Assembly (NCBI GenBank): GCA_951406725.2
Contig: OX597824.1
Span: forward strand, 31,744,001-31,808,000
Length of the DNA: 64,000 bases
Direction: 5' to 3'
Source of the DNA: Octopus vulgaris
Taxonomy: Eukaryota
The stretch's first letter is position 1. Each line of letters starts with the position of its first letter. Positions 24,553 to 31,360 of the stretch are shown in pieces. The position numbers and the translations under genes are program-made. The notes under the pieces were generated by a model. The model saw only the letters and a list, made by a program, of their open reading frames with translations, was not told the origin of the DNA and ran no database searches.

Positions 24553-25021
24553 TTTCAATGGTTATGTGAGACTTGTCTAAAAATAAAGAAAAGTTTTACA
24601 AAGTCAATAAAAGAAAATGAACAAAGAGCAAACTTGAAGAGGATTTGGAAAATGTGAATGTTGGTTTTGTGTATAGTGTTAGAATAGATATAAATGTAAA
24701 ATGAAAATTAACATAAATGGAACTACACATCATTATGATTATCTTCTATCTTTTACTTGCTTCAATATATATATATATATATATATATGTATATATTAAT
24801 CAATAAAAGGTAGCAAAAAATTCAAGAGAATTTTTTTCGCCACCAGCGGTCTAGTGAGAAAGAAAAAATAGTCAACAGACTATATAATGTACATTCAACA
24901 ATAATATTAAGGAATGGCCTTGATAGGCCATTCGACTCACTAAAGCGAGCAGCCAAACTCAAACCGCTAAATAGTAGTAATTCAGAAATCAAAGGAAAAT
25001 AAAAAACATTTACCCTTATCA

Positions 25022-25119
25022 TCTTTGGACTATGCAAAGTTTCGACGTACATTTTGGCAAACCAGCTTAATTAAATTAAATTAAATCAATTTACCACTGG
25101 CCCGTCTCATCGGCAAAGA
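25022..25119 (-). ncRNA. Type I hammerhead ribozyme (inverted copy of 25460-25567)
   Basis: Reverse complement reads TCTTTG-CCGATGA-GACG...CGTC-GAAA-CTT TGCA TAG-TC-CAAAGA. Confidence 0.72.
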
Positions 25120-25459
25120 AGCCAGGGGAATATATATTCCACGAGGCAACAGCATCAATGCCTCGGGAATATATACTCTAAACTTTCAAAATCTACCGTC
25201 ATCGCACCAACTTTAGCAGCAAATATAAACTGCTGATTTAATTTCAGAATTAGCCAAAAAATCATTAATTAATCAATAAAGGGTAGCAAATAATTCACTT
25301 TATTGCTTAATTAATGATTTTTTGGCTAATTCTGAAATTAAATCAGCAGTTTATATTTGCAGCTAAGTTGGCGCGATGACCGTAGATTTTGAAAGTTTAG
25401 AGTATATATTCCTGAGGCATCGATGCTGTTGCCTCGTGGAATATATATTCCCCCCGGCT

Positions 25460-25567
25460 TCTTTGCCGATGAGACGGGTCAGTGGTAAATTGATTTAATT
25501 AAATTAAATTTAATTTAATTAAGCTGGTTTGCCAAAATGTACGTCGAAACTATGCATAGTCCAAAGA
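25460..25567 (+). ncRNA. Type I hammerhead ribozyme, U4C core variant, long stem II
   Basis: TCTTTG-CCGATGA-GACG..(about 65 nt)..CGTC-GAAA-CTA TGCA TAG-TC-CAAAGA; GUC site; palindromic stem III ACTATGCATAGT. Confidence 0.78.
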
Positions 25568-26106
25568 TGATAAGGGTAAATGTTTTTAATTTTCCTTCGA
25601 TTTCTGAATTACTACTATTTAGTGGTTTGAGTTTGGCTGCTTGTTTTAGTGAGTCGAATGGCCTATCAAGGCCATTCCTTAAAATTATTGTTATATATAT
25701 ATATATATATATATATATATGTTATATATATATATATACACACACATATATATATATATATATATATATATATATATATATATATATATATATATATATA
25801 TATATTCATATATATATTCATAATATATATATATATATATATATATTCATATATATATTCATAATATATATATATATATATATATATATATATATATATA
25901 TATATATATATATATATATATATATATATATATATATATATAGATATATATAAATACATATAATTACACAACGACCTCGAACCTACAAGAGAGACAGAGA
26001 CAGGCAGAAACAAGGAAAATGCCACTTGCATTTGAACACTATGCAAATATTCTTTTAAAAAAACTTTTCTTTAATTTTTCCAAAATTTGGTTGTTTTCCA
26101 TACTTA

Positions 26107-26142
26107 CAGTTGAAAAAGTCTCAATAACTGAAACCGGTACTG
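26107..26142 (+). ncRNA. Minimal type I hammerhead, U3-A8 core variant
   Basis: CAG-TTGAAAA-AGT ctcaata ACT-GAAA-CCGG-TA-CTG; palindromic stem III ACCGGT; homolog at 59211-59248. Confidence 0.6.
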
Positions 26143-26234
26143 AAATGTTTTTTATAAAATTATTTTAGCATTTTCTATCTTTTTTCCATACTCACACACA
26201 CACTCACACATACATATATATATATATATATATC

Positions 26235-27280: not shown

Positions 27281-28024
27281 CTAAGATAAAAACAATAAAA
27301 TACTAAAGTAAATGCACATATATTATCTTATTAGAAAAGATAAATATATATAAAAATACATAATTTATATATATATATATATATATATATATATATATAT
27401 ATATATATATATATATATATATATGGGCAGATAACCGAAGAGATGGTGGTGTGGATTTCCACCTCGGCATCCAAAACTCAGAGTTTTATCTTGGCTACTG
27501 AATAATTGTCACATATTATTTTACAGATTACATATAAATATATATATATTTATATATATACATATATATATATGTATATACACACACATATATATATATA
27601 TATATATATGTATATATATATATATATACATATATGCATACACATACATATATATATACATATATATATATATATATATATATATATATATATATATATA
27701 TATATATATATATATATATATATATATATATATATACACACACACGTTTAATAATCTCAATGGAGGCACTGCAAGCAGAAACTAGAGGAACATAATAACC
27801 ACACTCAAAATCAACTATATACATATATTCTTCTATATTTATAAAATGGATATAAAAGTTGCAAATATATAAATATAAAAATACATATAAATAGATAAAT
27901 AATGATAGGATACATAAAACGCAGTGGATTTTAGATTTAAAAGTTATAATACATTGGTGTAATAAAAATTTGAGATGATAAAACATTAAAACGACATGAA
28001 AATAATAGAAGACTCTAAAAATTC

Positions 28025-28106
28025 CATCTACAGGCTGTTTCAGAGATGTACCAAGTAATATGATATATTTCATATTTTCAATAGTGACACTCCCCTTATC
28101 AGAATG
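28025..28106 (-). ncRNA. Degenerate hammerhead (G8A core mutation) between inverted repeats 27745-27815 / 28170-28240
   Basis: CATT-CTGATAA-GGGGAGTGT...ACATCTCT-GAAA-CAG C CTG-TA-GATG. Confidence 0.5.
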
Positions 28107-28374
28107 TTTTCACACAATACAGAAAAAACAAATACAGAAATACAATTATCCAATTACATACCATCTCATCTGATTCTAAGTGTGGTTATTATGTTGCTCT
28201 AGTTTCCACTTGCATTACCTCCAGTGAGATAATTAAGCTAAATACAGCTCACTAGTGGCACTACAACTCCAGTCTGTATTTTATTTGCAGGCATTGTGAA
28301 CACTAGCAATCTCAAAATAAAGCAGTGTATTTTATATATATATATATATATATATATATATATATATATATATG

Positions 28375-29160
28375 TATATTGGCAGGGCTTGACTGCTAGG
28401 AAGTCGGCCGTATGCTAGAAACAGATCATCAACGATCAAAGTAGTTTGATCGTTGATGATCTGTTTCTAGCATACGGCCGACTTCCTAGCAGTCAAGCCC
28501 TGCCAATATACACATATATTAGAATTTTCTCTGACTTCTCAGATTTTTTGTATGCTAGACTACTGGTTTTAAATTGATATTAAAATTAATATTAATTTAT
28601 CTCCCTCATTATTTAAATATTGAAATAAATACGTTCTCTCGTAGTAAGCACTAACCGCAGTGAATTATTTACTGCAGCCCTTCGCTTCAGGAATTTCTTA
28701 GCACGCCAGAACCAAGACATTTGAAATTTTATCCCTAATGTAATCGGTAAAACTAAGCACGTGTCTGTCTTGGCACGGAAGGCTGGGGTTAGTTTTTCAG
28801 TTTACATTTACAATGAACGAATGCACTGATGAAGCACGGACATTTGAATTATGTAAGTAATTCTTTTGTTAAAGGCCGAAACCGAGGTATGCATTTAATT
28901 CTGTTTTTTATATAAATTTTCATCTGTCCTGCCCGCCAAATTTGGTTCTGGTGTTCGCTGAATTTTTCCTCTAGAGAATTCCTTTGTAGTTTGATCATTG
29001 ATGATCTGTTTCTAGCATACGGCCGACTTCCTAGCAGTCAAGCCCTACCAATATACACATATATTAGAATTTTCTCTGACTTCTCAGATTTTTTGTATGC
29101 TAGACTACTGGTTTTAAATTGATATTAAAATTAATATTAATTTATCTCCCTCATTATTTA
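28375..29160 (+). mobile_element. Penelope-like terminal-repeat element: perfect hairpin (28375-28510) plus partial tandem repeat (28441-28615 repeated at 28987-29160)
   Basis: Inverted plus partial-tandem architecture in (TA)n, with an internal hammerhead. Confidence 0.8.
28820..28895 (+). ncRNA. Type I hammerhead ribozyme
   Basis: AATGCA-CTGATGA-AGC..GACA..GAATTA tgtaag TAATTC..TGTT..GCC-GAAA-CC GA GG-TA-TGCATT; 6-bp stem I; A.C mismatch at base of stem II. Confidence 0.72.
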
Positions 29161-29627
29161 TATATATATATATATACATACATATATATGCATACACATA
29201 CATATATGCATATATACACACATATACATGTATACATACATATATATATACATACATACATATATATACATATATTTATATGCATATATATACATATATA
29301 TATACATACATGTATACATATATATACACACATATATATACATCTACATATATATATACATATATTTACACATATATGTATACACACACACACATATATA
29401 TATATATATATACATATATATAGTACTAAATAATAAATATTTTTAATAGTATATTATTATCAATATCAGGAAACCAATATTAAAAAATTCTTCAGAAAGA
29501 TAAATATCTGTGTAAAATAATTGTTGTATTAAAAATATAAATATGTATAAAAATCTATGTAAATATTTATAAGTATAAATATATAATGTATATGACTGTT
29601 TAAAAGTTTTGAATTAAGTATTTAAAG

Positions 29628-29719
29628 CATCTTACTATCGTTTCACAGAAGTGCTGTCACTATAATGAAATCCTATATTGATAAGCATTTATAGACAACT
29701 CCTCTGCTCTTCAGAGATA
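29628..29719 (-). ncRNA. Type I hammerhead ribozyme, long stem II
   Basis: TATCT-CTGAAGA-GCAGAGG AGTTGTC...GACAGCA CTTCTGT-GAAA-C GATA G-TA-AGATG; decayed partial tandem copy at about 29965-30020. Confidence 0.78.
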
Positions 29720-31360
29720 TAAAATTTGAATTTTGTATAACATATTGAATGGTAGTTTTTTTTAAGATTTGAAGTAATACTATAAAAATAGTGTTTGTTT
29801 GAAATATAAATTTAATATTAAAAATTACTGCTTTTGATGAGAGTCTCTAAATCCATATATACTTCCTTGGTTAGTCTTCTGTAATAATCCATAATATTCA
29901 TATGTAAAATCCGTTATATTGTCTTGTATTCTAAATATAGTTCATATACTTAGATAATATAGAATAATGGAATCCTGTATTGATAAGCGTTTATAAATAA
30001 GTCTTCTTCTCTTCAGTAATATCAAATGTGAAATTTGTATAATTTACGAATGGTAGTTTTTAAAAAAATTTATGAAGTAATATGGGAAAATGGTGTTTGT
30101 TTGAAATATAAATTAAATATTTTGACCAATTTATAATTTTATAACTTCACATATAATTTAAAATACAATTTTATTTTATATTATTTAAGTATATGAACTA
30201 TATTTGGATTACTGGACAGTATAATGGATTTTATACATAAGTATTATGGATTACTACAGAAGAATTACCAAGGACACATATATGAATTTCAAGATTCTCA
30301 TACTAAAGTCTACTTACCAAAATCAAAAGCAGTAATTTTTTTATATATATATATATATGTACATACATATTATATATGTATATATACATACATATGCGTT
30401 TTTGTTCCTTTTTTATATTTTTTATATTTATATATACATATAGCAGCGTACATACATACTTGCGCTCACCTTATATTAGGTATGTATCTAAATTTTGTAC
30501 AACTTTTACTCTATCTTTAAGTCCCCCTCTCACTTTCTTCCTTCTTTCTTTTTCTCGCTCCCACTCTCTCTCACGTTTCTTGCCCTCTCTTTCTTTAACT
30601 CCCACTATTTCTCACTCGTTTTTCTTCCCTGTGCCTTTTTCTTTGTCTCTGATTTATTTTCTGATCCTTCAATCCTGCTGCCCCCTACCGATCTCTCCTT
30701 CTACGTGACCAGTGTCCGACCAGCCATGATCTTTCTTTCTTGGCCTGACTACCGACCACCAACACCTCTTATGTCCATCTCCTATGTTCCTGCCTTTAGG
30801 CTTTCACTTCATACACGCCAGCTCAATTTAATTTGTTCTCAGTCGAAAGACACCTGTTGTTATTACTTGTTGTTTGTATTCATAATTGTGTACCATGTTC
30901 TCCATTTTTGTCTTTGTTGTCATATACATGTTGTAGCTTTCTTACATAGGGGTCTAATGCTCTTAGCTTAGACTTTTTGGGGGCAACCAGATCGAACCGT
31001 CACAAGTGTAATTGTCCGAAATGGTTGTGATGTCTGGTACTTGACTGAAGAAAGAAGGTCACGAATGACCTGTCTTTTTTTGCCTGTCCTTTTAATTGTT
31101 GTTTCTCTTGTCCACCTTTGTATTGTCCATCTGTTCAATGTTTTTATTGTCCTATATTGCATTTTTGTGCCATTTTTAAATATTTTTATGTATATGCATG
31201 GATATATATATATATAATGAATATATTACATATATATATTATGAATATATTACATATATATATATTATGAATATATTACCTATATATATATATATATATT
31301 AAGAGTATATTACATACATATATATTAAGAAAATATAAAATATATGCATAAATATATATA

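Follow-up and report, generated by a model that had tools for sequence, protein, structure and literature searches.

The closest described relatives of the sequences reported here are Penelope-like elements (PLEs) that carry hammerhead ribozymes (HHRs), and the retrozymes of animals. The Hydra clade of PLEs, which includes Hydra-1_Obim of Octopus bimaculoides, was defined by nuclease and reverse transcriptase (RT) motifs, namely a GIY-YIG nuclease with CxCX5C, CxxC and CxH but without the CCHH cysteine pair, and an RT with RWK and DKT; its members target (TA)n and have a type I HHR in the end repeat and inverted 5' pieces (Craig et al. 2021, PMC8557442). Other described systems are a Neptune PLE whose HHR is minimal (Cervera and de la Pena 2014, PMC4209133), Poseidon of Anolis, with two RT start sites past the HHR, an optional tail and AT-rich targets (Frangieh et al. 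2024, PMC11167929), and animal retrozymes without long terminal repeats, which are low-GC monomers in partial or short tandems (Cervera and de la Pena 2020, PMC7229834) and for which an origin as non-autonomous derivatives of PLEs has been suggested (Li et al., bioRxiv 10.64898/2026.07.22.740005). Here, we analyzed a 64,000-nucleotide stretch of the Octopus vulgaris genome (contig OX597824.1, positions 31,744,001 to 31,808,000; hereafter the window, whose own numbering is used below), which holds a dense cluster of seven HHRs. We are confident, if not certain, that the cluster represents six independent PLE 3'-end insertions, with HHRs predicted to be of the dimer type, which likely accumulated in a TA stretch as copies themselves end in TA.

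As a kind of element, the cluster is known: it is ordinary transposon debris. It differs from described HHR-bearing PLE ends and retrozymes in scale, in a domain II of 45-75 nt, and in a rule by which short and long ends are paired. The Hydra-type families found here (C, D, F and I) share the protein motifs, (TA)n targets, end-repeat HHR and inverted pieces of published Hydra PLEs; however, their elements are approximately 4.6-5 kb long with asparagine (Asn)-rich inserts, whereas published ones are generally <3 kb, and loop 2 is 3-10 nt in 26/26 Hydra rows of File S2, compared to the 45-75-nt domain II here (two spike-moss motifs in the same file have 29-35-nt loops; PMC8557442). Furthermore, their tails reach 85-120 nt, and they comprise several families with approximately 19,000 nuclease candidates, whereas one octopus family is listed in that source (PMC8557442). 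Family B shows no substantial difference from the Neptune PLE, and the features of Poseidon recur here, with a tail of 30-40 nt in Anolis (PMC11167929) and of 35-120 nt in the octopus families. Families A and E resemble animal retrozymes as low-GC monomers in partial or short tandems. Unlike retrozymes, they are mostly dispersed 1.x-mers with two fixed 3' ends, an inverted piece and TA junctions; their HHRs are enlarged and palindromic, that of A with a fixed U4C core. For mobilization by PLEs, A and E offer structural evidence, whereas the preprint offers co-occurrence and trees (bioRxiv 10.64898/2026.07.22.740005).

The ribozymes were searched for with a type I descriptor (CUGANGA with at most one mismatch, or UUGANAA; GAAAC..GUH; stems I and II scored). 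It gave 12 matches in the window, coinciding with all 12 sites named in an earlier reading of the letters (the sequence-only reading), seven in the cluster and five elsewhere, with predicted cleavage sites at 3361-, 4590+, 25028-, 25561+, 26139+, 27203-, 28029-, 28889+, 29633-, 55558-, 59113+ and 59214-. As the descriptor thresholds were relaxed after inspection of the window, 12/12 is a tuned recall, and the shuffle count serves as the control instead: ten local dinucleotide shuffles of the window gave 0-1 matches, and stricter settings gave 6-10 window matches against shuffle means of 0-0.3. According to the descriptor, the type I core (CUGANGA / GAAA / NUH round three stems, open at stem I) is present in 12/12, with the variants U4C in family A, U3-A8 in family B and G8A in the window copy of family D. 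The seven cluster motifs sorted into exactly six families, where the sequence-only reading had counted about six: A (25022-, 25460+), B (26107+), C (27199-), D (28025-), E (28819+) and F (29628-). Its suspicion that standard annotation hides a genome-wide population of such ribozymes held up against Rfam, which returned no hammerhead in the window at the gathering threshold and none among the 150 matches listed of 258 at E up to 10. In a systematic sample of the genome (60 x 10 kb, 600 kb), the descriptor found 40 matches compared to 4.0 in shuffled sequence, which extrapolates to approximately 168,000 HHR motifs genome-wide (bootstrap 93,000-257,000), and domain II was at least 35 nt long in 13/40 of the matches. 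There may thus be about 1e5 HHR motifs, invisible to Rfam in this window, that find no mention in the main text of the octopus repeat annotation. That recent annotation lists PLEs, and its main text does not contain hammerhead, ribozyme or Hydra (PMC13282606). In the sample, 8/40 matches belong to one very abundant family, whose domain II measures 10 nt and which forms tiny inverted pairs with HHRs 73-112 nt apart (L228, L231, L243, L248 and L272). A 2016 survey by Lunse et al. is said to have collected about 150,000 variants of the dimer type, among which there may already be motifs with a long domain II or from cephalopods.

Clustering of 236 distinct motifs from the window and 280 genomic loci gave 41 families, and a perfect stem III palindrome was present in 24 of them (3.3 expected). 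In the alignment of family I (27 motifs), 94% of cells are paired and six pairs show two-sided change; none of 500 shuffles paired as well, a test inflated by the kinship of the copies, and slid controls reached 34-52%. A second genomic group has two-sided change in 9/20 pairs, mainly in its 12-bp stem II, and double changes that preserve the palindrome were found inside families A, F and I. Covariation among genomic copies, a point on which the sequence-only reading could have failed, is present for the stems in family I and two other genomic families, and for stem III across families as well. The unusual cores of A and B appear to be family traits, with CCGAUGA in 27/30 A motifs and UUGAAAA in 26/26 B motifs; the U3-A8 core is known from Schistosoma PLEs (PMC4209133), and U4C is a natural hammerhead variant, weaker yet viable (PMC3088659). 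Chance folding in AT-rich sequence could be argued from the weak single-sequence folding z-scores of 5/7 motifs tested, but the shuffled controls of both window (12 against 0-1) and sample (40 against 4.0), together with family conservation and covariation, refute it and leave it a negligible probability. We therefore regard all 12 window folds as real motifs by these sequence criteria. Nevertheless, the stem III palindrome is disrupted in the window HHRs of C and F (self-duplex -2.3 and -0.5 kcal/mol, respectively), and the window HHR of D carries an uncompensated G8A where the family majority core is CUGAUGA, so that these three of the seven cluster HHRs are probably dead through damaging private changes.

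Across the genome (2.8-Gb assembly), first-look candidates numbered 2068 for A, 1696 for B, 2196 for C, 291 for D, 1772 for E and 717 for F, and the best 40 candidates were scored per DNA search. Among copies, the 3' ends are fixed and the 5' ends ragged. In family B, 6/30 loci share a long upstream sequence in the same orientation, which translates to an RT thumb and GIY-YIG frame; in C, 5/25 loci reach a GIY-YIG frame across a 1.6-kb AT-rich untranslated region (UTR) with an old 800-nt duplication; in D, the GIY-YIG nuclease frame is reached in 2/26 copies; and in F, a nuclease frame is found in 2/25 loci, across an old 300-nt duplication, and in none of another set of 25 loci. As copies of B, C, D and F continue into nuclease frames, their short units are 5'-truncation products. 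This bears on the possibility that each of the six families is a short ribozyme element that propagates itself (a retrozyme), to which the seven short, non-coding window units, and the closed monomers of A and E with repeats more alike within than between loci, lend some appeal. The fixed 3' and ragged 5' ends of B, C, D and F, and their longest copies entering nuclease frames, refute it for these four, so that for all six together it is very improbable; for A and E it holds. Accordingly, the sequence-only reading was right about a Penelope-type origin, several unrelated families and (TA)n targeting, and it went astray in treating short elements as a class, since four of the six families are truncation products with some copies reaching a GIY-YIG frame; its term retrozyme-like survives for A and E, and for a 359-nt family elsewhere, and fails for B, C, D and F. 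Two other repeats were taken at first for closed units, namely F as a 300-nt tandem monomer and C as a 1.1-kb element; in both, the repeat is an old duplication within a long 3' UTR.

By diagnostic motifs, C, D, F and I are assigned to the Hydra clade and B to the Neptune clade; an initial assignment of the former to Neptune and of B to Poseidon was reversed by motif tests against Craig et al. The linker CX4CxxC and the cysteine pair inside GIY-YIG of family B form the Neptune pattern, alongside a minimal HHR and a 35-nt tail; a CX2-5CxxC linker with two cysteines between GIY and YIG was seen in L067, L071 and L075, with an intact motif in L004. A query with family I retrieved intact frames (976-1091 aa) with HHRs and TA tracts on their flanks. 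In these frames, RWK/RWR, DKT, CxCX5C, CxxC and CxH are present and the CCHH cysteine pair is absent. The RT motifs RWK and DKT were read in the intact frames related to family I, 5/5 of which have them, and CxCX5C, CxxC and CxH without the CCHH pair are shared by I, D and C; in family F, the Hydra nuclease motifs were seen in two decayed copies only, with the spacing CxCX6C. The two HHRs of intact elements are 4.6 kb apart (L213, L216). The intact Hydra-clade frames at L211-L216 carry two long Asn-rich inserts (16-17% N), which resemble those of rotifer Penelope elements. A homolog search with the PLE protein gave 20 matches, one of them named, for Octopus sinensis, and 19,010 first-look candidates for a nuclease of the family I type were found in the genome. 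Many of the nuclease copies are near-identical, which suggests recent activity.

In the window, family B (25973..26181, +) is the 3' end of a Neptune-clade PLE truncated on its 5' side and has a minimal HHR at 26107..26142 (+; UUGAAAA, a U3-A8 covariant core, 13-nt domain II, 6-nt palindromic stem III, GUA); a second family B HHR lies at 59206..59253 (-), in a copy 82% like 25973-26181. Family C (27075..27340, -) represents the 3' end of a truncated Hydra-clade PLE whose 3' UTR is AT-rich and approximately 1.6 kb long; its HHR (27199..27281, -) has the core CUGAUGA, a 56-nt domain II, GUA, and the broken palindrome described above. Family D comprises a main arm (27748..28178, -), a truncated Hydra-clade 3' end with the short end, and an inverted piece (28179..28332, +) that carries the long 3' end; its HHR (28025..28106, -) has the window-copy core CUGAUAA, a 54-nt domain II and GUA. 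Family F (29430..30301, -) represents the 3' end of a truncated Hydra-type PLE and contains an old internal duplication of approximately 300 nt and an inverted piece at 30171-30301; its HHR (29628..29719, -) has CUGAAGA, a 63-nt domain II, GUA, and likewise the broken palindrome. Outside the cluster, a truncated family I element spans 56.5-59.1 kb, with the open frame of a 5'-truncated Hydra-clade PLE at 56893..57903 (+; Asn-rich linker, CxCX5C motif, GIY-YIG-type endonuclease) and an HHR with a 59-nt domain II in its 3' end repeat (59030..59119, +). HHR H (55553..55640, -) lies in a solo end repeat approximately 70% like the end repeats of coding Hydra-clade elements.

Families A and E appear to be retrozyme-like non-autonomous PLEs with the insertion signature of PLEs. 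At many unlinked loci, sequence that follows the HHR continues directly into sequence that precedes it, with offsets of 480-490 nt in 14/33 A copies and of 540-550 nt counted 33 times among 36 E copies, which gives non-coding monomers of approximately 485 nt (A) and 545 nt (E) with one type I HHR each. Complete cleavage-to-cleavage E monomers number five distinct ones in four loci, and no complete A monomer was present among L001-L030. Circles were predicted to fold stably (E, z -3.1 to -7.8; A, -148.5 vs -105.8 +/- 6.2). The repeats of E differ by 2.0% within a locus compared to 3.3-5.2% between loci, and those of A by 4.0% compared to 5.9-6.3%; minority letters are shared by both repeats in 50 cases and confined to one in 65 for E, and in 31 and 90 for A. 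The likeness within loci and the shared minority letters indicate that the terminal redundancy was remade from one unit, and the data fit both a circular template and homogenized master arrays as its source. Variants of family E also occur in contigs from three runs that are merely presumed to be RNA, and the E tandem joint is found in run X3 and the large run X15 too, which is no evidence for expression or circles. An alternative is that A and E are end repeats of coding elements like the others, their tandem form arising by local duplication or their parent having been missed, and the scoring of the best 40 of about 2000 candidates per family leaves it some room. It is nonetheless improbable in view of the head-to-tail wrapping at many unlinked loci, the five distinct E monomers in four loci, and the absence of any PLE protein match to A or E stretches below E 0.78; no upstream nuclease of their own was found for A or E among the scored copies. 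Nuclease frames upstream of E (L052) and F (L178) proved to belong to separate neighboring elements, with TA tracts between, and a 66-codon frame in A was rejected as a PLE remnant, having no PLE match.

In the window, family A forms an inverted pair. Arm 1 (24797..25300, -) spans approximately one period, with a long 3' end in (TA)n approximately 230 nt past the cleavage site, and its HHR (25022..25119, -) has the family-typical U4C core CCGAUGA, a 63-nt domain II, GUC, and one change in the stem III palindrome. The inverted partner, arm 2 (25308..25690, +), has a short 3' end in (TA)n approximately 128 nt past the cleavage site, and its HHR (25460..25567, +) has CCGAUGA, a 73-nt domain II, a perfect 12-nt stem III palindrome and GUC, with cleavage predicted after 25561. 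Family E (28441..29158, +) holds 1.3 periods, with a terminal direct repeat (28441-28613 / 28986-29158), a long 3' end, and an inverted piece with the short 3' end (28382..28443, -); its HHR (28819..28896, +) has CUGAUGA, a 45-nt domain II, a stem III palindrome with a central GA, and GUA. Elsewhere in the genome, a further non-coding HHR family with a 359-nt unit, a perfect core, GUC, a 6-nt palindrome and 49% GC was noticed at L221:2097-4768 (G000:C1:20.00 Mb), in an inverted array of approximately 1.8 + 5.6 units that are 96-100% alike. It has 2128 first-look candidates and a predicted circle fold of -117 vs -93 +/- 5; it is apparently young and, within this genome, the strongest candidate for a retrozyme that is still active. 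Families A and E and the 359-nt family would provide structural evidence for retrozyme insertion by PLE enzymes in animals.

The insertion signature consists of fixed 3' ends at TA junctions. Past the cleavage site, two 3' ends are preferred in A (approximately 128 and 230 nt), B (54 and 90), C (150 and 235), D (300 and 393), E (160 and 270) and I (35 and 153). This agrees with the pair of internal RT start sites by which the PLE tail is defined (PMC11167929), and tails are longer in families with a long domain II. A microsatellite, of TA type, lies just past the shared 3' end in 31/32 copies of A, 29/30 of B, 27/29 of C, 19/22 of D, 27/34 of E, 21/31 of F and 35/40 of I, by a loose test in which the (TA)n bias is read without matched random control sites; by that test, the (TA)n insertion bias typical of the Hydra clade is present. 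In the window, too, the units are bounded by TA tracts, inverted in A, D, E and F and partly tandem in E and F, much as the sequence-only reading had described them. Where inverted insertions lack an inner TA tract, one short and one long 3' end are combined in 33/34. A motif-free test, which overlaps this set and adds four families not used before, found unequal ends in 18/19 pairs with both ends measured (10 further rows had one end unmeasured), and in the 359-nt family, ends of 181 and 228 were paired, by eye, in 23/23 inverted insertions among the 150 matches listed. Divergence is lower between the two arms of a single insertion than between arms taken from different ones (within/between: A 3.4/5.3%, E 1.8/5.2%, I 0.8/17.6%, D 10.4/12.8%). 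In print, the asymmetry of ends is qualitative, 'at one of the inverted pLTRs' (PMC3846280) or 'often only at one end' (PMC8557442), and we did not find a strict short/long rule or a twin-priming reading of PLEs in the published literature.

The near-strict pairing of short and long ends suggests twin priming. For an anole PLE, RT was reported to start at two internal sites, both strands to be cut at AT-rich positions, and a dimer was predicted (PMC11167929). In our proposal, the GIY-YIG nuclease of the element would cut both strands of a TA tract, and two RT subunits would prime, one from each DNA end, at the pair of internal start sites of one uncleaved or circular RNA; early joining of both complementary DNAs (cDNAs) would then yield short head-to-head inverted inserts, and every insertion would leave or lengthen TA tracts that attract the next one. 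Families A and E may be copied in trans, from a circle or a multimeric transcript, by a Hydra-type protein, which we propose because they have the same long domain II and approximately 100-nt tail. Inverted inserts could instead stem from a single cDNA, through self-priming by fold-back or through template switching, with the asymmetry reflecting start and stop points; self-priming has been proposed for rotifer PLEs (PMC3846280) and likewise predicts near-identical arms. However, either arm may be the longer one, and either may carry the long end (the main arm has the short end in L213, L215 and L216 and the long one in L195), and both ends match sites that non-inverted copies use too, which makes a single cDNA unlikely as the source. 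With the rule of short and long ends, what had been a qualitative remark becomes a sharp prediction that bears on how PLEs form inverted and tandem ends.

How the HHRs may act is suggested by stem III. A short palindromic stem III predicts cleavage as dimers of same-sense copies (PMC4209133; PMC6765202), and the palindromes found here suggest that any cleavage would mainly be of this kind; the inverted window copies cannot pair as same-sense dimers in cis. As the copies run across the cleavage site, the template RNA was uncleaved or re-ligated. In the anole PLE, the HHR required protein and was dispensable for in vitro insertion (PMC11167929).

Several observations weigh against our reading of the cluster and its mechanism. 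Minimal PLE HHRs are weak in vitro (PMC4209133), 8/9 Xenopus retrozyme dimers failed to cleave (bioRxiv 10.64898/2026.07.22.740005), and in the anole system HHR mutants left insertion unaffected and no difference in start site was seen between the strands (PMC11167929). Four inverted pairs with an inner TA tract were set aside, three short/long and one short/short, with which the total becomes 36/38; a first, looser terminus caller had given 20 short/long, 19 short/short and 1 long/long, and was rejected because it mistook internal AT-rich spots for ends; the stricter caller was written after its result had been seen. The two 3' ends of family F did not separate cleanly. The clade assignments rest on motifs and not on an RT tree, Pfam and PDB sequence searches of the PLE proteins gave no match, and scoring only the best 40 candidates per search leaves room for a coding parent of A or E. 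Finally, HHR count and TA content correlate weakly across the 60 sampled stretches (rho 0.25, p 0.053), so that a TA trap is not demonstrated to explain the whole local excess.

That excess is real, as none of 180 overlapping 4.8-kb sub-windows of the sample holds more than two families, compared to six in the cluster. Tracts of (TA)6+ occupy 748 bp per 4.8 kb of the cluster, approximately five times the sample mean, and a self-feeding TA trap is the likely cause. On a broader scale, it is possible, and we put this forward tentatively, that the genome holds approximately 170,000 HHR motifs in dozens of PLE families, largely a Hydra radiation with a domain II of 45-75 nt and several non-coding hammerhead circles riding on it, and that twin priming is obligate in PLEs; if true, obligate twin priming would account for the optional tail and inverted 5' repeat of PLEs generally.

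The cluster lies approximately 220 nt upstream, on the minus strand, of a probable first coding exon at 24375-24575 (-), with splice acceptor, ATG and donor, of a hydrophobic protein; eight paralogous exons occur within approximately 670 kb of the same contig, and no Pfam family passes. The cluster may lie within a 5' UTR intron of that gene, and four of the seven HHRs would then be in the sense of the gene, as befits a regulatory ribozyme battery under selection for the neighboring gene. Yet C, D and F, which make up three of these four, carry damaging changes relative to their families, and the fourth has a palindrome change, which looks like neutral decay and makes such a role extremely unlikely.

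Other features of the window and genome were noted in passing. HHR G- (3356..3404, -) and HHR G+ (4546..4596, +) are the two arms of one inverted insertion (3338-3473 / 4478-4613). A short inverted repeat at 14694-14830 has a degenerate HHR-like core with stem I missing, below the descriptor count, and a near-perfect 364-bp palindrome beside TA tracts (59811-60173), in which no HHR was called, is probably another inverted PLE end. At G000:C12:34.2-34.3 Mb, three 3-kb segments (L344-L346) are 99% identical and approximately 70 kb apart, either a recent segmental triplication or an assembly artefact. Within the cluster, an unrelated repeat without an HHR (26236..26460, +), with more copies in the window, is taken by us to resemble a short interspersed nuclear element. 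An open frame on the minus strand is duplicated (31698-32009 and 32948-33334), presumably resembling the C-terminus of a DNA transposase. Finally, two inverted blocks of an approximately 150-bp tandem repeat lie at 49873-50408 and 51436-51998.

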